Shown here: piece by piece, positions 1,966 through 63,770 of the stretch
Position numbering within the stretch: position 1 is the first letter of the stretch
Layout of the letters: each line of letters begins with the position of its first letter
DNA from: Candidatus Sungiibacteriota bacterium
Lineage (GTDB): Bacteria > Patescibacteriota > Minisyncoccia > Sungbacterales > SURF-37
Length of the DNA: 64,000 nucleotides
NCBI GenBank assembly: GCA_016203665.1
Contig: JACQMJ010000008.1
Location: forward strand, 19,150 to 83,149
Direction of reading: 5' to 3'
The notes under the pieces: model-generated
Told to the model about the DNA's origin: nothing
Databases searched by the model: none
Seen by the model: the letters and a program-made list of their open reading frames with translations, nothing else
Program-made: the position numbers and the translations under genes

Positions 1966-2145
1966 GTGAACCCCGTTACAACCCGGCCTGAAGGCCGGGG
2001 CCTCCAATGAGTTTTATGGATTCTTCCTTCCTCCCCGCCCTGCCCCGTTAGAGGCTCGCACCAGAGGCGCGGCAGACGCCTGCGGCGTCTTGCCTCTAAC
2101 GGGGCCTGAAGGACGGGGCGTCCGGGTTGTAACGGGGTGAACCCC
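1966..2145. repeat. composite nested palindromic element (outer 16-nt IR enclosing an inner element bounded by the 14-nt IR gccccgttagaggc / gcctctaacggggc)
   Basis: Outer IR is ccccgttacaacccgg (1971-1986) / ccgggttgtaacgggg (2122-2137). Inner IR is gccccgttagaggc (2042-2055) / gcctctaacggggc (2092-2105), with a hairpin-forming loop (agacgcc tgc ggcgtct). Direct repeats cctgaaggccgggg / cctgaaggacgggg are also present. The same inner termini recur at 60557-60632. Confidence 0.6.
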
Positions 2146-3243: not shown

Positions 3244-4577
3244 GGCATGGCGTTCAAGATATACGTAGCCAGCCGCTCCCCGGCCCGGCCGTCAAGCGCT
3301 CCGCAGTGCGCGGCCACGATGGCCGCCCGCCCGTCCCGGTCGAGCTCGGGCTCTTTGATATAGCGCATGACCCAATCGCAGAGCTCATCAGGGCTTTTGG
3401 CCAGACGCACGCCGCCTGATGCCAAAATGAACTGATGGTGCTCGTAATCATAATATTTAAGAATGCCCTCGTGATAGGGCCGCGGCGTTTCATCAAATCC
3501 GACTAAAACCACGGGCTTCATGAAGGCAATGGCATCCACGATCATAGTGGAGGCCCAGGTTACGACAACATCGGCCGCGTTCAGTGAATCGGCAAGGTGC
3601 CGGTCCGCGGCCCGATCCATGTTGATATTCACGAAGTCACCGTAATCGCCGGGATCATCCAGGCGCATATTCGGCGGAAGCGCTTTACCTTCCAGGCCGC
3701 TCCGGCCGACAATGGGCGGCCTTATCAAAACTTGGAGGCCGCTTGCGGCAAGCGCGTCAACGACCAGCGGCGATACCAAATTATCGCGCAGGTACCGATC
3801 ACTGGGCGTGGCAAAAAGAACGAGCTTTTTATTTTCATCAAATCCGAATTTCCGCATGAAATCAGAACGCGGCATGCAATCCTGCGAGCGATAGTGGTCA
3901 TAGTGCGGCACACCGGTAATGAAAATGCGCTCACCGGGAACATCACCATAGCGGATAAGCTCGTTCTGGATGCGGGGGCCGTTCACGACCACCTCGTCGG
4001 GAATATGCATGAGAAGGGTCTTTGAGGTCACGTTATCCCAGGAGCGGACCATGCCTACGGTTTTGACCCCGCTTTTCTTTGCGGCAAGCATGAGTTTCAC
4101 GTCCTGCAGTGCAAAAACATCCGTGGCAAAAACTAGATCAGGGCGGTACTTTTTAAAAAGGCGCTCGTATTCGCGATAACCGAGCAATATGCCGACAAAA
4201 AAACGAGACATCCGCCGCACCCAGCCAATACGGCCTAAAAAACCAAAGATAACGGAGGCCGCGTAATCGAAGCGGTTCCGATCGAGTGCGAACTTGACCC
4301 GCCGCTGTACCTCGCGCGTTTTCGTCGGCAGGAGGTTGGTGGCGATGGTCCAAAGCAAACGGTCAAAACCGTCGGGGATTTCCTTGGCCGGCATATGGAT
4401 ACCCTCAAAGATGACATTGGGTCCGCCGAACTCGCGCCGGAGCGCGGAAACGTTCTGCTCCGACGCCACTACTACGATCTTTAACCCTGGCTCTTTTGCC
4501 AAACGCGAAAACGCGTCCGTCGCAAGAATATTCCGGGCGATAAGTCCGCGGATGCAGGTGATGAGAATGGTTTTCAT
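3240..4577 (-). CDS. CDP-glycerol glycerophosphotransferase-like (TagB/TagF family) polysaccharide biosynthesis protein
   Basis: The length and the C-terminal region (...YYDYEHHQFILASGGVRLAKSPDELCDWV...) resemble the Glyphos_transf family. It has a paralog at 20894..22252. The start was taken at the internal ATG 4577 (MKTILITCIRG). Confidence 0.5.
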   Translation of the reverse strand: MKTILITCIRGLIARNILATDAFSRLAKEPGLKIVVVASEQNVSALRREFGGPNVIFEGIHMPAKEIPDGFDRLLWTIATNLLPTKTREVQRRVKFALDRNRFDYAASVIFGFLGRIGWVRRMSRFFVGILLGYREYERLFKKYRPDLVFATDVFALQDVKLMLAAKKSGVKTVGMVRSWDNVTSKTLLMHIPDEVVVNGPRIQNELIRYGDVPGERIFITGVPHYDHYRSQDCMPRSDFMRKFGFDENKKLVLFATPSDRYLRDNLVSPLVVDALAASGLQVLIRPPIVGRSGLEGKALPPNMRLDDPGDYGDFVNINMDRAADRHLADSLNAADVVVTWASTMIVDAIAFMKPVVLVGFDETPRPYHEGILKYYDYEHHQFILASGGVRLAKSPDELCDWVMRYIKEPELDRDGRAAIVAAHCGALDGRAGERLATYILNAMP

Positions 4578-4713
4578 TTCCGCCAGTCGGCTAAGCGAGT
4601 TCAATAAGTAAGTGCACCACCCAAGGCTTGTAACGGTGTCTTCCACCCGAGCCGTTTTCTTGGCCGAGCGTTGAGAATGTCCGTTTTATATTTACCAAAG
4701 AACAGGCACCGAA

Positions 4714-34998: not shown

Positions 34999-36171
34999 TT
35001 ATACTACCTTCCCCAGGGGCTTAGTGGCACGCGCGAGGAGATCCAAAATCTTTGCCGCGCGAGCCTCCCACGTGTACTGTCGTACTGCCATGCGCGCCGA
35101 ATTCGAGCGCCGTTCCGCCTCTTCCGACCGACCCAGAGCCAGAGCGATTACTGCCGCGAAAGCCTTGGGATCATCCGGCCCAGCGAAAAATACCATGGAC
35201 TCATCCGCGATCTCCCGAATGGACGGAATGTCGGAGGCCACGATGGGCCGGCCCGCGGCCATGTACTCGAAGAGCTTCATGGGCGAGGTATAGCGGAGCG
35301 ACTCCTCATTGCGTGCGGTATTGGGAATAACGAGGACGTCGGCCGCCCTCAGCCATAGCGGAATCTCCTTCCATGGTTTCTGCCCGACAAACACAATTTG
35401 TGATTTGGAATTTGTGATTTGGAATTTGGATATCTCGGCTTTGCCGCCGCCTACTATATAGAGTGAAACGCCATCGGAAAGATATTGCGCCGCAGCAACG
35501 AACGTCTCCACTCCTTTCCAGCGCTGGAGCGAACCCGAATAGAGCACGATCTTTTTATCCTGCGGCAAGCCCAGCCGTGCGCGCGCCTCTTGCCGGCTCA
35601 CCGAAATATCGAAACGCTCGATATCCGTCCCGTTCGGCCAATAAACAATTCGTTCGGCCGCTATGCCGAAATCCCTTTGGAGGGCAGTCATTTTCCATTT
35701 TGTCTGTACCGAAAAACCGATGGCGCGCTTGATAATCCGCCGGAAGAGCCGCGTACGGCCGGGATAATTATGGATGTCATAGAAGATCCGGGGAGCAACA
35801 AAACTTGCGAAGAAGAGCGGCACGTGGTCGTGCGAAAAAATCACGGTATCGCGAAGACCGCCGGAAAAACCGTAGCGGATAAGGAGCCAAAAGGCGGCGA
35901 CTTTTGAAAAAGAAAAAAGCTGCAGGGCAAACCAGAAGCGCTTGCCGAACGGCAGCCACAGGAGATCAACGCTCGGCAGGTAAAAAATACGGAAATTCCG
36001 CTCCACGCCGTAGTATTCATAAAGATCAATTTTAAGCGGATTGGAGCGCCGCGGCGCAAAAATAATGACCTCTGCCCCCTGCTTGGCAAACGCCGCGCAG
36101 AGTTTCACGGTGGCGAGCCCGTGGGCTTTCTCGGTCGGCAGACGGGCATTCGTAACATAGAATATCCTCAT
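34999..36171 (-). CDS. GT4 (GT-B) glycosyltransferase
   Basis: GT4 C-terminal domain: ...PMKLFEYMAAGRPIVASDIPSIREI.... It contains a 15-bp in-frame tandem repeat at 35397-35441. Confidence 0.7.
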   Translation of the reverse strand: MRIFYVTNARLPTEKAHGLATVKLCAAFAKQGAEVIIFAPRRSNPLKIDLYEYYGVERNFRIFYLPSVDLLWLPFGKRFWFALQLFSFSKVAAFWLLIRYGFSGGLRDTVIFSHDHVPLFFASFVAPRIFYDIHNYPGRTRLFRRIIKRAIGFSVQTKWKMTALQRDFGIAAERIVYWPNGTDIERFDISVSRQEARARLGLPQDKKIVLYSGSLQRWKGVETFVAAAQYLSDGVSLYIVGGGKAEISKFQITNSKSQIVFVGQKPWKEIPLWLRAADVLVIPNTARNEESLRYTSPMKLFEYMAAGRPIVASDIPSIREIADESMVFFAGPDDPKAFAAVIALALGRSEEAERRSNSARMAVRQYTWEARAAKILDLLARATKPLGKVV

Positions 36172-36178
36172 GTGAGTT

Positions 36179-36218
36179 CATTAACATTTCTCATACGATC
36201 GTATGAGAAATGTTAATG
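36179..36218. promoter_or_regulatory. perfect 40-bp AT-rich palindrome (cattaacatttctcatacga|tcgtatgagaaatgttaatg) between two GT4 genes
   Basis: The two 20-nt arms are exact reverse complements with no spacer. The element overlaps the stop codon of 36213..37346 and ends 7 nt upstream of the ATG of 34999..36171. Its GC content is about 30%, inside a genome of >60% GC. Confidence 0.6.
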
Positions 36219-37346
36219 TAAATTCATAATAGTGTGAAACGCCGCGCGATACCGTTCGAGGTATTCTTGCCATGTTAGCGGCGACAAGACCAGGACTTCC
36301 GCCCGCGCCCGCTCGGCCATCGCCTGCATGGCCGGGTAGTTCCGGCGCGCATCGGCGAGCGCTTGGGCGAGCGCCCGGCTGTCTCCCACCGGCACCACGC
36401 GGCCGGTCTCGCCGTCCCGGATAATCTCTCCGGCCACGCCAACGTCGGTCATGACGACCGGCGCGCCCGCGGCCGCCGCTTCAATAACGGTCCGGCCATA
36501 GCCTTCAAAAGCCGAGGTTAATAGGTAAAGGTCGGCAGTTTTGTAGTACGAAACGAGATCATCCTGCCACCCTTCCAGCCATACGCCTCCCGTCAACGCG
36601 AGATTCTGAATTTGAGATTCTATACTCCGCCGCTCCGGCCCCTCGCCAACGATGACGAGTCCCGCGCGGGGAAATTCGCGGCGAAATTCAGCAAAGGCCT
36701 CGAGCGCAACGTCGATGCGTTTGTCGCGATTCAGGCGTGATACCATGAGCACGATGAAGTCAAAATCGGGGTAGCGCTCGCGGCGCGAGATGGTTGGCCG
36801 GGTGCTCGCAATCGCCTCGCGGTCGACGAAAATCGGAAGGGTAACGACCTTCGCCGCGGGAATGCCGAATACGGATGCAAGCGAATGGGCAAGACGTGCA
36901 GAGACCACGCGGAACGCATCGCCGCGGGGTATGGTAAACCGGCTAATCCCATAGCGGAGCCTATCCTTCCACGAATTATGGCGAAAGTACGGACTCAAAA
37001 CATCGGCATGGAGCTGGATGTGCAGCGGCACGCCGGTAGAGCGCTTGATGAGCCAGCCGGCAAGCCCGGATTCGGCCGGATCCTGCACGCTTACCGCGTC
37101 AATCCCCCGCTCCCTGACAATGGTCTTACCGATCCGGACGGCGTCAAACGGCCGTCGAAAAAAGAAGCGGGAATTGGTCGGATAGAGCCGCGCGCCGGAC
37201 TGAAGCGCCTCGACCCGGAATCCCGGCGCCGTATAGATAACGATATGCAGTTCATCGAACAGGCGGCCGTAGGCCTCAATGCGGCTACGGGCATCCGAAT
37301 CCGGACGAAAGATGGTTGTATCGGTGCCGATAATCAGAAGTTTCAT
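36213..37346 (-). CDS. GT4 (GT-B) glycosyltransferase
   Basis: GT4 signature: EGYGRTVIEAAAAGAPVVMTDVGVAGEI. The start is at ATG 37346 (MKLLIIGTD), which overlaps the upstream stop. Confidence 0.7.
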   Translation of the reverse strand: MKLLIIGTDTTIFRPDSDARSRIEAYGRLFDELHIVIYTAPGFRVEALQSGARLYPTNSRFFFRRPFDAVRIGKTIVRERGIDAVSVQDPAESGLAGWLIKRSTGVPLHIQLHADVLSPYFRHNSWKDRLRYGISRFTIPRGDAFRVVSARLAHSLASVFGIPAAKVVTLPIFVDREAIASTRPTISRRERYPDFDFIVLMVSRLNRDKRIDVALEAFAEFRREFPRAGLVIVGEGPERRSIESQIQNLALTGGVWLEGWQDDLVSYYKTADLYLLTSAFEGYGRTVIEAAAAGAPVVMTDVGVAGEIIRDGETGRVVPVGDSRALAQALADARRNYPAMQAMAERARAEVLVLSPLTWQEYLERYRAAFHTIMNLH

Positions 37347-39601
37347 AGTGAATCCCGGATTACTTTCAGCCAATCCCCCGCGACATCATCCCACGAACGG
37401 CCGCCCCTGAACTCGCGAAGACGCTCGCAATAGGCCGCGTATGAGGGCGAATCCATGAGTATCCTCAACTTTGCGGCGATGTCCGCCTCATCCAGCGGGT
37501 CGACGAAGATGCCGATATCTTTCAGCGCTTCATAAAAACCTGTCTCCTTAGTGAGGAGAAATGGCGTACCGGTCTCGATACAGTCGAGAATCACGTTGGG
37601 ACTAACGTCCGAGAGCGAAGGGAGGAGAACGGCGTGAGCTGAAGCGATGGCCGCGCCAACTTCAGCTGTAGGGAGGGCCGGCCGGATGCGGATGCGATCG
37701 GCGGCGCCGGAGGCGCGAATTTCCGCTTTGAGTGCGGTCCGCTGCGGCCCCGCGCCGATGAGAAGAAGCCGCCAGGGCGGCGGGCAGGCCGCGGCGAACG
37801 CTCGGATGAGCCGCGGCAGATTCTTCACGCCGACGAACCGGCCGGCGAACACGAATGCCCGGTTGCGCTCGCTGCTACGGCGCTCTGGCCCGGGATAGGG
37901 CGGTCTGATGAGCGCCGCCTGTTCTGGGCGCAGGGAATATCCGGCTTGGAAAATATCATTCCGCCACCGGGATGAGAATACGATGCGCTTCGCCCGCGGA
38001 AATACCCGCTGGCTCATGCGCTGCCACGCCCGTTCCCGCGGGCTCAACGAAAGGCGCGCCAGGGCCCCGTAAAACTGCTTCAGCGTAAATTCCCTGCCGG
38101 TGCGCTCGACATAGCGCTCCCACAGGGCATCACCCTCGACGCGAATGATGAACGGCTTGCCACTCATGCGGCAGGCCACAGCAAGGGGACGCCCGACCGC
38201 GACCGGATCGAGCGCGATGGCGATATCAGCATCGCCGAGCATTCGCCATGCGGCAAAACCGTACCGGAATAGCCGAACGGGCAGGGGTGCGGAGAGCGGC
38301 ACGTATGTTTGCACGATGCCGGTACCGGGCGCCGTGCTCATCCGGCTGCCGTAGCTCAAAATAGATACGCGATGGCCGCGCCCGAAAAATTTATCGGCCA
38401 GCTTCAACGCATACGCGCCGGGGCCGCCGATGTCCGGCGGCAGCATGGGGGTCGCGATCAAAATGCGCGGGAGCATTGCGTCGCGGAACGCCTCTTTGTA
38501 GCCGGCGGCGATGGCATCCCAGGAGAATCGCTCGCGAACCATGGCCCGGCCGGCATCGGCGATCCGCCGGCTCAACGGCACATCACGGAGAAGCCGAAGC
38601 GTTTTTTCGGCCACATCGGCGGGGTCGTCCACTCTCGCAAACAGGCCGGTCCTGCCATCCTCGATGATATCGAGGATGCCCTCGACCGGCGTCCCCACGA
38701 TCGGCAGACCCGCGGCGAGCGCTTCGACAAAGGCGTTGCCCATACCCTCGGAGCGCGCCGGCCGCACGAAAACATCAGCTGCGGCTAGATACCGCGGGAG
38801 ATCAGCATACGGCACACTGCCCAAAAACGTGACCGCTGGCCCAACGCCGAGCCTCCGGGCCAGCTCCTCCAGGCGCGGCCGCTCCGGCCCGCTGCCGAGG
38901 ATATGGCAGTACACATCGGGGACGGATTTCCGTATTTGGGCGACGGCGCGGATGAGAATATCCACGCCGTTCTTCGGCACGAGCCGCGATACCGTTATAA
39001 TCATTGGCCCGTTTTCGCGTTTTTTTTCTCGCGGCACGGCAGAAAATGCATCAATGGAAACGCCATTATGGAACAATGCCACCGGACGGCGGTAGCCGAA
39101 ATGCGCCGCCTCTCCCGCGAGGTACTTTGATATCGCCGTCACCGCATCGGCGCGGCCGAGCATCCAGCGCAATGAAAGTCCAATGACGCCCAGGCGCCCG
39201 CGCCGGAGCCGGCGGCCGCCGTAACCGTATTGAATAGTAAGGATAAAGCGCGCGCCCGGCGAGAATACTTTTGCGATGGCCGCACCAAGGGCTCCGGCCG
39301 ATACATCCATGCCCCAGAGAATAGTGCCAGGCTCATCGCGTTCACGACGAACGGCAAACGGAATTAAAAGCGGTAAAATCCACTTATCAAATGGCGTGCC
39401 CCATCCGATGCGGATGATGGTTCCTTCCGGCCGCGCTTCCCGCTTGGGCAGATCCGAACGCAGACGCGCGGTAACAATGAAAAAACTAAATTCATCCGTA
39501 ATACGCCGGCTTACTTCTTGGATGGCTATTTCTGCACCGCCGACAAACGGATAGTAAGCGGTGGTGCATGCAAAAATGGCGGGTTTGCGGCCTGCCTCCA
39601 T
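37343..39601 (-). CDS. tandem two-domain GT4 glycosyltransferase (fusion of two GT-B modules)
   Basis: Two complete GT4-like units are present. The first has EGMGNAFVEALAAGLPIVGTPVEG. The second starts around aa 380 and has ...LPSLSDVSPNVILDCIETGTPFL. Confidence 0.65.
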   Translation of the reverse strand: MEAGRKPAIFACTTAYYPFVGGAEIAIQEVSRRITDEFSFFIVTARLRSDLPKREARPEGTIIRIGWGTPFDKWILPLLIPFAVRRERDEPGTILWGMDVSAGALGAAIAKVFSPGARFILTIQYGYGGRRLRRGRLGVIGLSLRWMLGRADAVTAISKYLAGEAAHFGYRRPVALFHNGVSIDAFSAVPREKKRENGPMIITVSRLVPKNGVDILIRAVAQIRKSVPDVYCHILGSGPERPRLEELARRLGVGPAVTFLGSVPYADLPRYLAAADVFVRPARSEGMGNAFVEALAAGLPIVGTPVEGILDIIEDGRTGLFARVDDPADVAEKTLRLLRDVPLSRRIADAGRAMVRERFSWDAIAAGYKEAFRDAMLPRILIATPMLPPDIGGPGAYALKLADKFFGRGHRVSILSYGSRMSTAPGTGIVQTYVPLSAPLPVRLFRYGFAAWRMLGDADIAIALDPVAVGRPLAVACRMSGKPFIIRVEGDALWERYVERTGREFTLKQFYGALARLSLSPRERAWQRMSQRVFPRAKRIVFSSRWRNDIFQAGYSLRPEQAALIRPPYPGPERRSSERNRAFVFAGRFVGVKNLPRLIRAFAAACPPPWRLLLIGAGPQRTALKAEIRASGAADRIRIRPALPTAEVGAAIASAHAVLLPSLSDVSPNVILDCIETGTPFLLTKETGFYEALKDIGIFVDPLDEADIAAKLRILMDSPSYAAYCERLREFRGGRSWDDVAGDWLKVIRDSL

Positions 39602-42576: not shown

Positions 42577-42632
42577 GCCGGTCGCCCAAGCACCTCAAAA
42601 CGCCCCCGATGGGGCGTTTTGAGGTGCTTGGA

Positions 42633-57919: not shown

Positions 57920-58207
57920 TCACTTCTCCATTTCTCGAAGCACCGGGCAAAATTGCTGTATGGGGCTGTAGAAATTAATCAGCGCCTCTACGGAAACCTG
58001 ACCGCCATCCTTGCTGAGCCGGTAGCCGCCATACGGCCCCTTGCGCGACTCTAACCATCCGGCCTGTTTCAACTCCTGGGCAACTTTTTCGAGGTAGGCC
58101 CGCGGCAAACCTAATGCCTCGGCAATTGTTCCGACGCCTGCGAATGTCCCACCCTGCTCCCGGAGGGAGCCGAGGAGAGCGATGGCGTAATCAAAGCGTT
58201 TCCGCAT
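57920..58207 (-). CDS. Rrf2-family winged-helix transcriptional regulator, short form lacking the Cys cluster ligands
   Basis: Rrf2 N-terminal wHTH: MRKRFDYAIALLGSLREQ...TIAEALGLPRAYLEKVAQELKQAGWLESRKGPYGGYRL. It is 95 aa with a single Cys, so the three-Cys Fe-S ligand set of IscR is absent. Confidence 0.7.
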   Translation of the reverse strand: MRKRFDYAIALLGSLREQGGTFAGVGTIAEALGLPRAYLEKVAQELKQAGWLESRKGPYGGYRLSKDGGQVSVEALINFYSPIQQFCPVLREMEK

Positions 58208-58319
58208 GGGATTTCCTAATCCGGATAGATTTAGTCCGATTATAACCGGCGGCCCGGCGGTAGCAAGGGACTTGCCCTTGACATCCTAAAAAGAAATGGA
58301 GCGCCGATCAAAACTCACC

Positions 58320-58357
58320 CATAAGGTTTATTGACCGATCGGCCAATAAACCTTATG
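58320..58357. promoter_or_regulatory. 38-bp near-perfect palindrome upstream of rrf2 (candidate Rrf2 operator)
   Basis: cataaggtttattg-accgatcggc-caataaaccttatg: perfect 14-nt arms flank a 10-nt spacer. It lies about 115 nt upstream of the rrf2 ATG (58207). Confidence 0.5.
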
Positions 58358-60258: not shown

Positions 60259-60887
60259 AAGGGAGCGGCGGCGAGGTGCTTATACTCCGCCCCTGACGGT
60301 TTCAGGTGCGACTCCATCACGGTGACCTCATTCGCCTCAAAGCTAAAATCAACCTCGCCGAGCGTGCGGGTTTTGGATTCAAGTTCCTTTAATTCGCCGG
60401 GCTCGAAGCGCGCGAGCGTTACGTGGAGATGCACCGGTCGGCTCTCCGGTTTCAGCGGCGGCAATTCTTTCTCTGCGCCCCACACTTTCTCAATCTTCTT
60501 TTTCAGCCGCACGAGTTCCGGCGGCGTATCGCCTTCGAGCCAGATCATCCGCGCCTGCCCCGTTAGAGGCCCGTTCCGCTTTTGGCGGAACGGCAGCTCC
60601 GACATCCGGTCGGAGCTTGCCTCTAACGGGGCCTGTACGCCGGCCGGCGCCAGCACTACGCGCGAAAAACGGATCAGAAACGGCTTCCCGAAACGGCTAC
60701 GGCCGGCGAGTGCGGAGAGTACTTCGACCTCACGATTTTCCAAGTAGACCGGTGGAACGATGGTAATATGCCAGTTCGTAGGCGCGAGCCACCAAATGGG
60801 CAGCCAGCGCCATTGGGCGATGGCATCTTCAATCCCCCGCTTCAATTCCGGCGGCAAGTCAATGACAACAAAAATGCGCCGCTTCAT
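60255..60887 (-). CDS. ligT: 2'-5' RNA ligase / 2H phosphoesterase (LigT/ThpR family) carrying an in-frame repeat-element insertion
   Basis: Two H-x-T/S-x motifs (NWHITIVPP and PVHLHVTLARF) are present. The spacing between them is about 30 aa longer than in canonical LigT. The extra segment APLEASSDRMSELPFRQKRNGPLTGQA is encoded exactly by the palindromic element at 60557-60632. Confidence 0.65.
   Translation of the reverse strand: MKRRIFVVIDLPPELKRGIEDAIAQWRWLPIWWLAPTNWHITIVPPVYLENREVEVLSALAGRSRFGKPFLIRFSRVVLAPAGVQAPLEASSDRMSELPFRQKRNGPLTGQARMIWLEGDTPPELVRLKKKIEKVWGAEKELPPLKPESRPVHLHVTLARFEPGELKELESKTRTLGEVDFSFEANEVTVMESHLKPSGAEYKHLAAAPL
60557..60632. repeat. second copy of palindromic element with 14-nt terminal IR gccccgttagaggc / gcctctaacggggc, inside ligT CDS
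   Basis: Termini are identical to the 2042-2105 copy, and the flanking ct...ctg also match. The internal loop differs but is itself hairpin-forming (ccgttccgc tttt ggcggaacgg; ctccgac atccg gtcggag). The insert length of about 81 nt equals 27 codons. Confidence 0.6.
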
Positions 60888-63543: not shown

Positions 63544-63587
63544 GGGACAGGGATTTGAACCCCAGTTTCCGCGTCTCCCGCACAAAA
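63544..63587 (-). pseudogene. tRNA 3' fragment (T-arm + 3' acceptor strand only), possible integration remnant
   Basis: The minus strand reads ...GGAAAC TGGGG TTCAAAT CCCTG TCCCGGG G: a T-loop TTCAAAT, a 5-bp T-stem with two G·U pairs, and a 7-nt acceptor 3' strand. No cognate 5' half exists, because the adjacent tRNA-Gln occupies that space. Confidence 0.3.
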
Positions 63588-63658
63588 CTCGGGGGCTTGG
63601 ATTCGAACCAAGATACCATGCTCCAGAGGCATGGGTCCTACCGTTAGACGACCCCCGA
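63588..63658 (-). tRNA. tRNA-Gln (anticodon CUG)
   Basis: Minus-strand cloverleaf: acceptor TCGGGGG/CCCCCGA, D-arm GTC-TAACGGTAG-GAC, anticodon stem CATGC/GCATG with loop CT-CTG-GA, T-arm CTTGG-TTCGAAT-CCAAG. CCA is not encoded. Confidence 0.75.
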
Positions 63659-63698
63659 GTTTTATGCGGGACTTCGCGCCGCGCGGCTTACCCACTTT

Positions 63699-63770
63699 TG
63701 GCTATGGGTGGAGTCGAACCACCGTTTGAGCGTTATGAGTGCTCTGTTCTAACCGTTGAACTACACAGCC
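63699..63770 (-). tRNA. tRNA-Met (anticodon CAU; elongator Met or Ile2-lysidine type)
   Basis: Minus-strand cloverleaf: acceptor GGCTGTG/CATAGCC, D-arm GTTC-AACGGTTA-GAAC, anticodon loop CT-CAT-AA, T-arm GGTGG-TTCGACT-CCACC, discriminator A. Initiator hallmarks are absent. Confidence 0.75.

Follow-up and report, generated by a model that had tools for sequence, protein, structure and literature searches.

We describe a 74-nucleotide sequence within a LigT (2H phosphoesterase) gene of a Candidatus Sungiibacteriota bacterium that is very probably a non-autonomous, hairpin-forming mobile element, inserted in-frame at a CAGG site with duplication of 4 bp. The gene lies in the 64,000-nucleotide stretch of contig JACQMJ010000008.1 that was analyzed as a whole (the window, to which coordinates refer unless another locus is named). 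The sequence belongs to a family of short elements whose ends recur in several phyla, and an earlier note on the window, made from the sequence alone, underestimated the family's phylogenetic breadth, the rule that insertion lengths are multiples of three (3n), and the three-way-junction structure.

The insertion in the LigT gene

On the + strand the site reads ...cgcgCCTG, then CCCCGTTAGAGGC, 48 nt and GCCTCTAACGGGG, then CCTGtacg..., and the 14-mer GCCCCGTTAGAGGC at 60557-60570 faces its exact reverse complement at 60619-60632 across those 48 nt. Four matches to GCCCCGTTAGAGGC occur in the window, as two inverted pairs (60557/60619 and 2042/2092), against a chance expectation of 0.72, and four or more were found in 0 of 100 shuffles; the perfect 14-nt inverted repeat that the earlier note saw as the boundary of the element is thus real and not a product of chance. 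Forward orientation is defined by the unpaired A that follows the left arm, and for the LigT copy it is the - strand, in mRNA sense.

A homolog search returned a 100% identical protein in a Candidatus Sungbacteria metagenome-assembled genome (MAG) and 78 further homologs, whose length is mostly 184-189 aa. When 27 orthologs (45-76% identity) are aligned with the LigT of the window, 26 residues are unique to the latter, and H40, T42, H155, and T157 are invariant. Two orthologous genes have an empty site at the DNA level, reading ...ATC CAG GCG CGG ATG... and ...GTC CAG GCA CGG ATG..., where the window has GTA CAGG, 74 nt, and CAGG CG CGG ATG. Taking out the unit and one CAGG restores V-Q-A-R-M exactly, so the difference is a 74-nt insertion plus a 4-bp target duplication, 78 nt (26 aa) in total. 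The earlier note correctly placed the extra segment between the two H-x-T motifs, but its length is 26 aa rather than the ~27 aa stated there. Its proposal that a mobile element entered without breaking the frame is supported, and orthologs lack the segment as it expected. The gene with its insert is base-for-base the same in five independently assembled contigs, which excludes an assembly artefact.

The mechanism that we propose for this site is as follows. The element would insert at CAGG in the LigT coding sequence and duplicate 4 bp; the gene stays open because unit and duplication together make 78 nt and the termini in mRNA sense (PLEA...PLTG) read without a stop, and a 26-residue loop would then be translated. 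The sense-strand translation of the element is PLEASSDRMSELPFRQKRNGPLTG, and the open reading frame (ORF) encodes the peptide APLEASSDRMSELPFRQKRNGPLTGQA between H40-x-T42 and H155-x-T157. Assignment of the host to the 2H phosphoesterases is supported by the invariant H40/T42 and H155/T157, by Pfam matches to LigT_PEase (E 1.1e-12) and 2_5_RNA_ligase2, and by structural similarity to LigT. An AlphaFold2 (AF2) model built on the ortholog alignment has a mean predicted local distance difference test score (pLDDT) of 88 and matches E. coli LigT structures in Foldseek, the best being PDB 5ldm with a template modeling (TM) score of 0.80 on the target. In this model the insert is a low-confidence coil (pLDDT ~43-63, and <50 at residues 90-103) between the strands at 70-79 and 113-119. 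The insert thus models as a disordered surface loop, the location on which the earlier note had asked for a check, with both catalytic H-x-T motifs intact and the 2H fold predicted to be undisturbed. The gene order NUDIX-LigT-MFS is kept in an ortholog locus.

Other LigT orthologs contain insertions of their own. Small unrelated inserts occur in five of them (P0042, P0010, P0018, P0007, and P0044), and the ortholog P0008 has, in-frame at another site (L125, ~1690-1755), a different 66-nt GC-rich palindrome with arms CCCGCCTGCC/GGCAGGCGGG, which folds at -65 kcal/mol over 100 nt and encodes SLPVPARPARLPDGQAGGRQAG. Palindromic insertions of more than one family may thus be at work in these genomes. 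In one LigT homolog (P0075, 325 aa) there is a fused Archease domain (PF01951), a link to RtcB-type RNA ligation.

A multi-phylum family with shared ends

A scan of one genome per prokaryotic species for the pattern CCCCGTTAGAGGC-N30-60-GCCTCTAACGGGG gave at least 118 loci, with target duplications, nesting, and frequent residence in genes, so that the termini recur well beyond the window. By record title, ~78 of these loci are from the candidate phyla radiation (CPR)/Patescibacteria, including two Sungbacteria, 21 from Omnitrophota, 10 from Planctomycetota, and 1 each from Elusimicrobia, Gammaproteobacteria, and Deltaproteobacteria, while 6 are labelled 'bacterium' only; all carriers of the family are MAGs. 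Units are 35-107 nt long, with an interior too short for a protein. The arms of the window copies are perfect over 13-14 nt. The CCCCGTTA core is common to all subfamilies, and at the same loci the constant CCCCGTTA is followed by the variant sub-termini GAAGC, GAAAT, GAGAT, CAACC, AAAAT, or GACGC. Interiors are phylum-specific, with a best cross-phylum identity of 0.79 (CPR versus Omnitrophota) and ~0.6 for other pairs; among Omnitrophota copies, 18/22 share at least 85% identity with a partner elsewhere. The suggestion in the earlier note that interiors differ and termini define the family therefore extends across phyla. That only the 13-nt ends and the architecture are common to the phyla argues that the ends are a functional recognition site, presumably of an enzyme that acts in trans.

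The exact termini had 0 matches in 2.9 million viral contigs. Looser ends (CCCCGTTAGA...TCTAACGGGG) occur in 6 IMG/VR contigs classed as viral (L119-L124), none of which has the exact GAGGC type, and BLAST searches of plasmid and phage collections gave no meaningful match to the element. No description of the CCCCGTTA-ended family was found in the searchable full-text literature, outside which most subscription journals lie, and the family is apparently large and undescribed.

The flanks of the copies carry the signature of insertion. An exact 4-nt direct repeat is present at 72 of 122 copies, and most of the others have repeats of 2, 3, or 5 nt. Rebuilt empty sites give the consensus G|Y-N-N-R|C, in which position 1 is never a purine and position 4 never a pyrimidine. 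One genome has two 62-nt copies of identical sequence, one between duplicated CCAG and the other between duplicated CTGG, so the 4-mer arises at insertion and is not carried by the element. Insertions are nested in the window (1971-2137 around 2043-2104) and at L104, L108, L112, L094, L079, and L043, a frequency that is expected if earlier copies are safe landing sites. Transposition would probably involve a cut at Y-N-N-R with a stagger of 4 nt, and its intermediate may be strand-specific.

The second inverted pair in the window bounds a copy that, as the earlier note observed for its element at 2042-2105, shares the termini of the LigT copy and has CCTG on each side. This copy (2043-2104) is indeed intergenic, but it is nested inside a third, related element (1971-2137); it has 2 nt differences from copies in other CPR genomes (L042 and L066). 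The outer element represents a sister family with CCCCGTTACAACC ends, for which a scan of JGI metagenomes gave 51 loci (L131-L181). The modal length of the sister family, 101 nt, is 2 mod 3; it is mostly intergenic and its lengths are less strictly 3n (27/51), and its in-gene copies are 3n in 5 of 5 cases. The sister-family interior is conserved, and one of its strands has a Shine-Dalgarno-like GGAGGAAGG; the outer element of the window stands directly upstream of an ORF for a small membrane protein (- strand, start near 1947). Elements of both families are also found in the leader region of type IV pilin-like genes (L138 268-368, L155 240-340, L165 1068-1168, L161 1049-1149, and L103 ~3700). 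There the target is TTCA and the G-F-T codons are duplicated, so that the prepilin cleavage site G|FT(L/I)IEL is retained after the insert, and the element peptide would be removed along with the leader.

Several copies stand out by their interior or location. AT-rich 'cargo' subfamilies of 79-81 nt in Kaiserbacteria are without internal hairpins, mostly intergenic, and not strictly 3n; two such copies (L004 7102-7181 and L104 2407-2486) have a -10 box resembling TGATATAAT and a gene start directly downstream. In an rplC-rplD-rplW-rplB operon (L036), with elements at 3424-3507 and 4531-4635, an element with TCCCGTTAGAAAT ends replaces the 3' end of rplC and gives L3 a new C-terminal tail, and one element lies between rplW and rplB. 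On a Planctomycetota contig, an element adjoins a tRNA gene (L024 6714-6792).

Frame neutrality and a conserved fold

Unit lengths are almost only 56, 59, 62, 65, 68, 71, 74, 77, 80, and 83 nt, and 49 of the 51 unique GC-rich two-hairpin copies (p ~2e-21), as well as 103 of all 129 unique copies, are 2 mod 3. With a 4-nt duplication, a 3n+2 unit makes the insertion length a multiple of three. The same unit length places the TAG and TAA of the termini in one frame and leaves two frames open, which read xPLEA...PLTG and PVRG...ASNGV.

A copy was called in-gene when its frame was stop-free for at least 40 codons on both sides, and 134 copies were far enough from locus ends for this call. Long open frames hold 44 of the 134, all 44 of which are 3n, and 0 of 28 non-3n copies (Fisher p 5e-6), which shows selection against non-3n copies within genes. 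Copies are also depleted in genes, at 33% compared with 72% for random positions of the same loci. In the 33 strongest in-gene cases the two open frames alone are used and the TAG/TAA frame never, with both orientations relative to the host gene represented; a count of copies by this orientation gave 13 versus 9. Among two-hairpin copies, 57% are open in all four usable reading modes, compared with 34% when the interior is shuffled. The hosts checked with Pfam are ordinary proteins, many of them essential: SecA (two copies in one gene), ThrRS, UvrB, UvrD/PcrA, PGK, ComEC, a DEAD-box helicase, a flavoprotein oxidoreductase, and a glycosyltransferase. A protein-level search with 12 concatenated element peptides in 5.8 billion sequences gave 3 significant matches and added an amino-acid kinase and a uracil-DNA glycosylase as hosts; its power was low because 20-aa matches cannot become significant in a collection of that size. 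These results fit purifying selection on host genes together with element-level selection for translatability. In gene-dense genomes, selection at the level of the element has apparently given rise to 3n+2 units, interiors open in two frames on both strands, and a compact three-way junction.

Each strand of the LigT element can fold into a stem of 13-14 bp that ends in two hairpins, and hardly any bases at the junction are unpaired. The fold in mRNA sense has a free energy of -68.9 kcal/mol, compared with -35 for shuffled sequences (z = -9.2), and the second copy has the same architecture with a different interior sequence (z = -5 to -6). Among the 15 copies of the 62-nt subfamily, pairing in the two internal hairpins is 97% and 8 pairs are changed on both sides, a number reached in 0 of 500 shuffles; pairing falls to 33-48% in shifted registers. 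The three-way junction is kept across subfamilies although the stems are wholly different. The conserved fold may be a structural requirement of a mobilization step, or alternatively it may result from self-correction of palindromes by intrastrand templating.

Alternative explanations and known elements

The stable and covarying fold brings up the possibility that the element is present in the DNA but not in the protein, either because it is removed from the mRNA (the stem joins the CAGG copies, and an endonuclease and a ligase would do the rest) or because ribosomes hop between identical codons. Besides the RNA fold itself and internal hairpins that covary like those of a structured RNA, the identical in-frame CAG codons on both sides of the element are in keeping with this idea, and the orientation asymmetry of the family hints at a strand-specific process. 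We nevertheless consider it quite improbable. Neither removal nor bypass would impose rules of frame and length, yet 44 of 44 in-gene copies are 3n, none of the 44 uses the stop frame ((2/3)^44 ~2e-8), and non-3n copies are excluded from genes. Moreover, host genes carry copies in both orientations, the take-off codon is not followed by a stop codon, and there is neither an Rfam match nor a ribozyme-like junction. A host-beneficial regulatory or structural module rather than selfish DNA, such as a protein-binding palindrome, an RNase site, or a DNA-uptake-type pair, is very improbable. Conservation of the 13-nt termini across phyla with variable interiors, the conserved structure, and the presence of some copies in DNA-repair and competence genes would suit such a module, but target duplications, nesting, and random hosts and positions are hallmarks of transposons, copies are depleted in genes, and the LigT copy shows no signal of a terminator or promoter. 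DNA uptake sequences are lineage-specific and are not known to make duplications, which counts against a module of that type because the element copies have duplications and termini shared across phyla; uptake sequences were rejected as candidates on these grounds.

Two further explanations can be set aside almost entirely. A lineage-specific loop expansion, or a slippage palindrome that resembles 2042-2105 by chance, would have some parallel in the unrelated small insertions found elsewhere in other LigT orthologs (P0008 and P0042), but it is refuted by a 26-nt exact terminal match to at least 118 loci, which cannot be due to chance, and by the exact duplication of 4 bp where orthologs have an empty site. 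Every carrier is a MAG, as would be seen with an assembly or binning artefact; the chance of such an artefact is nonetheless negligible, as the insert-bearing gene is assembled identically in NCBI and in three Logan run assemblies, family members come from many assemblers and studies, and the reading frame is kept.

Insertion of a non-autonomous mobile element in LigT is thus the explanation that we favor, and several observations weigh against it. The whole 64-kb window holds just three elements. Neither the window nor ~1.2 Mb of flanking DNA yielded an autonomous element or a transposase: when the ORFs near 118 loci, and later near 175, were clustered all against all, the result was housekeeping families only, with no recurrent transposase-like protein, and no long-range terminal pairs bracketing a gene-sized segment were present in the ~1.2 Mb scanned, where seemingly solitary termini all have a degenerate partner within 110 nt. 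A search of JGI metagenomes with a wobble-degenerate junction pattern gave 0 matches to an empty-site allele of LigT from the same strain, so that any recent mobility in this genome is conjectural. The data show the insertion, the duplication, the in-frame position, the family traits, and the selection against non-3n copies in genes; translation of the insert, its tolerance by LigT, and the chemistry of transposition are inferred. The p-values given above are optimistic because the copies are not phylogenetically independent. Finally, the target is linked to orientation: in oriented copies the duplicated 4-mer reads Y-N-R-R, with a middle dinucleotide of RR in 19, YR in 12, YY in 2, and RY in 0 (p 2e-4), and in the sister family the TGAA/TTCA duplication (35 of 40 copies with an exact repeat) tracks element orientation in 35 of 35. 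A simple, symmetric cut-and-paste model does not predict this link. The LigT copy obeys the rule, with CAGG on its forward strand, and the rule hints at a strand-specific intermediate or an asymmetric complex.

A broader proposal would be that elements with CCCCGTTA ends form a new class of structured, ultra-short mobile DNA outside the known insertion sequence (IS) families, moved in trans by an enzyme via a strand-specific intermediate (single-stranded DNA or RNA) with a 4-bp duplication, and frame-neutral so as to colonize essential genes of streamlined genomes across phyla. We advance it tentatively and think it rather unlikely.

The family has parallels in several known systems. Rickettsia palindromic elements (RPEs) are ~100-150 bp long and confined to Rickettsia. 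Like them, the family consists of palindromes found in-frame in unrelated genes of small, gene-dense genomes, putatively translated here as an extra peptide, and neither has a known transposase. By description, the family differs from RPEs in its size of 35-105 nt, in its hosts (CPR, Omnitrophota, Planctomycetota, and others), and in having defined 13-nt termini, an exact 4-bp duplication, a 3n+2 rule, and a three-way junction. Residence in-frame in diverse ORFs is common to both; a Rickettsia host is not, and the RPE family is set apart by description. The likeness to RPEs that the earlier note drew holds as a functional analogy, and the elements may be regarded as the RPE phenomenon in a different, smaller, multi-phylum family. 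[quoted passage not shown] ERIC, QMITE1, Anabaena MITEs, and Correia elements resemble the family in size, inverted repeats, target duplication, and occasional in-frame fusions, but they are mostly intergenic, limited to one genus or family, and usually have a parent IS, whereas about one-third of the copies described here are in genes, no parent IS was found, and the whole family is length-quantized so as to keep the frame. Generic MITE traits are present (short length, no transposase gene, terminal inverted repeats, and target duplication), and the label is provisional because no matching autonomous element was found. The earlier note called the element MITE/REP-like, with REP standing for repetitive extragenic palindrome; the features that define REPs are not shared.

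In REP/REPIN-RAYT (REP-associated tyrosine transposase) systems and the palindrome-associated transposable elements (PATEs) of IS200/IS605, as in this family, short elements are rich in hairpins and strand-specific, and a single-copy enzyme acts, or in this family presumably acts, in trans. PATEs and REPs have no target duplication and a fixed flanking tetranucleotide, whereas here identical elements have different duplicated 4-mers; PATEs insert 3' of a single fixed tetra- or pentanucleotide and lack terminal inverted repeats; REPs are extragenic, with a conserved GTAG-type tetranucleotide at the 5' end and a RAYT gene close by, whereas copies of this family are commonly intragenic, have variable true duplications, and share no neighboring gene. 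The duplication of both CCAG and CTGG and the perfect inverted repeats of the arms are not IS200/IS605 traits, and the sole IS605-like trait is the fixed, oriented TGAA of the sister family. A 4-bp duplication, a palindromic target, and CC(CC) ends recall DDE enzymes of the IS1380/piggyBac type, and piggyBac excises precisely, which would suit in-gene elements; IS1380 is treated as a prokaryotic outgroup or relative of piggyBac. The family has a 4-bp duplication, ends starting CC(C), and a palindromic outer target consensus, which is a resemblance only. The target is YNNR instead of TTAA, the searches found no IS1380-like gene between such ends, and the orientation bias would be unexpected. 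The GC-cluster or 'byp' elements of yeast mitochondria are skipped by ribosomes and so have no known constraint on frame or length. They are likewise short, GC-rich, palindromic mobile inserts in coding sequences with short direct repeats, but the frame and length rules of this family are strict.

Other candidates were rejected. The core order GTTAGAG...CTCTAAC is the reverse of the attC pattern 5'-RYYYAAC...GTTRRRY-3' on either strand; the three-way junction lacks the conserved unpaired core of hammerhead and twister ribozymes; an intein would be longer and would have splice residues, which the insert lacks; a retron noncoding RNA would likewise be longer than the element, and no reverse transcriptase is nearby; and the absence of a T-run speaks against a terminator. 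Rfam 15 gave no match to the element at gathering score (only two tRNAs in the window) and nothing overlapping it with E <10.

The family illustrates how selfish DNA can persist in some of the smallest bacterial genomes, among the densest in genes, if it leaves reading frames unharmed, and it is a possible source of odd lineage-specific insertions in CPR proteins. Inserts of 20-35 residues with PLEA...PLTG or PVRG...ASNG in many proteins of uncultivated bacteria would accordingly be parasitic DNA and not functional loops. Shared 13-nt termini, an orientation-specific target, and no recognizable transposase point to a mobilizing enzyme that is yet to be found, and an enzyme with so small a recognition site could serve as a tool.

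Window features

Positions and supporting evidence of the elements and host gene in the window.
Feature	Positions	Strand	Evidence or remark
Element unit in LigT, 74 nt (CCCC...GGGG)	60558..60631	-	Absent from orthologs; terminal repeat; fold
Target-site duplication, copy 1 (CCTG on +, CAGG on -)	60554..60557	.	Empty sites of orthologs with one CAGG
Target-site duplication, copy 2 (CCTG on +, CAGG on -)	60632..60635	.	Empty sites of orthologs with one CAGG
Left terminal arm, CCCCGTTAGAGGC	60558..60570	.	14 nt when the flanking G at 60557 is counted
Right terminal arm, GCCTCTAACGGGG	60619..60631	.	Inverted-repeat search
Internal hairpin, 10-bp stem and 3-nt loop on + strand	60571..60593	.	Folds; equivalent hairpins covary in the family
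Internal hairpin, 9-bp stem and 5-nt loop	60595..60617	.	Folds; family covariation
Host gene, LigT/2H phosphoesterase, 210 aa	60255..60887	-	Pfam, orthologs, AF2 model; insert at ~residues 85-110
Second copy, 62-nt subfamily, intergenic	2043..2104	-	Inverted pair 2042-2055/2092-2105; fold
Target duplication CCTG of second copy, left	2039..2042	.	
Target duplication CCTG of second copy, right	2105..2108	.	
Outer related element, termini CCCCGTTACAACCCGG	1971..2137	.	101 nt without the nested 66-nt insertion; hosts second copy
Target duplication TGAA of outer element, left	1967..1970	.	Right copy at 2138-2141

The neighbors of both window copies are genes for NUDIX, MFS, Rrf2, and cysteine desulfurase proteins and for glycosyltransferases. 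Further palindromes were observed elsewhere in the window. A perfect 40-nt palindrome at 36179-36218 (CATTAACATTTCTCATACGA/TCGTATGAGAAATGTTAATG) takes up the space that separates two glycosyltransferase-like ORFs (35002-36177 and 36216-37385), and a near-perfect palindrome of 38 nt (58320-58357) lies just upstream of an Rrf2-family regulator gene (57923-58285, - strand), whose operator it could plausibly be. Between convergent ORFs, a terminator-like sequence (42586-42631) has a perfect stem of 21 bp and a loop of 4 nt. At the window's right end (63587-63770), the - strand carries genes for tRNA-Gln(CTG) and tRNA-Met(CAT).

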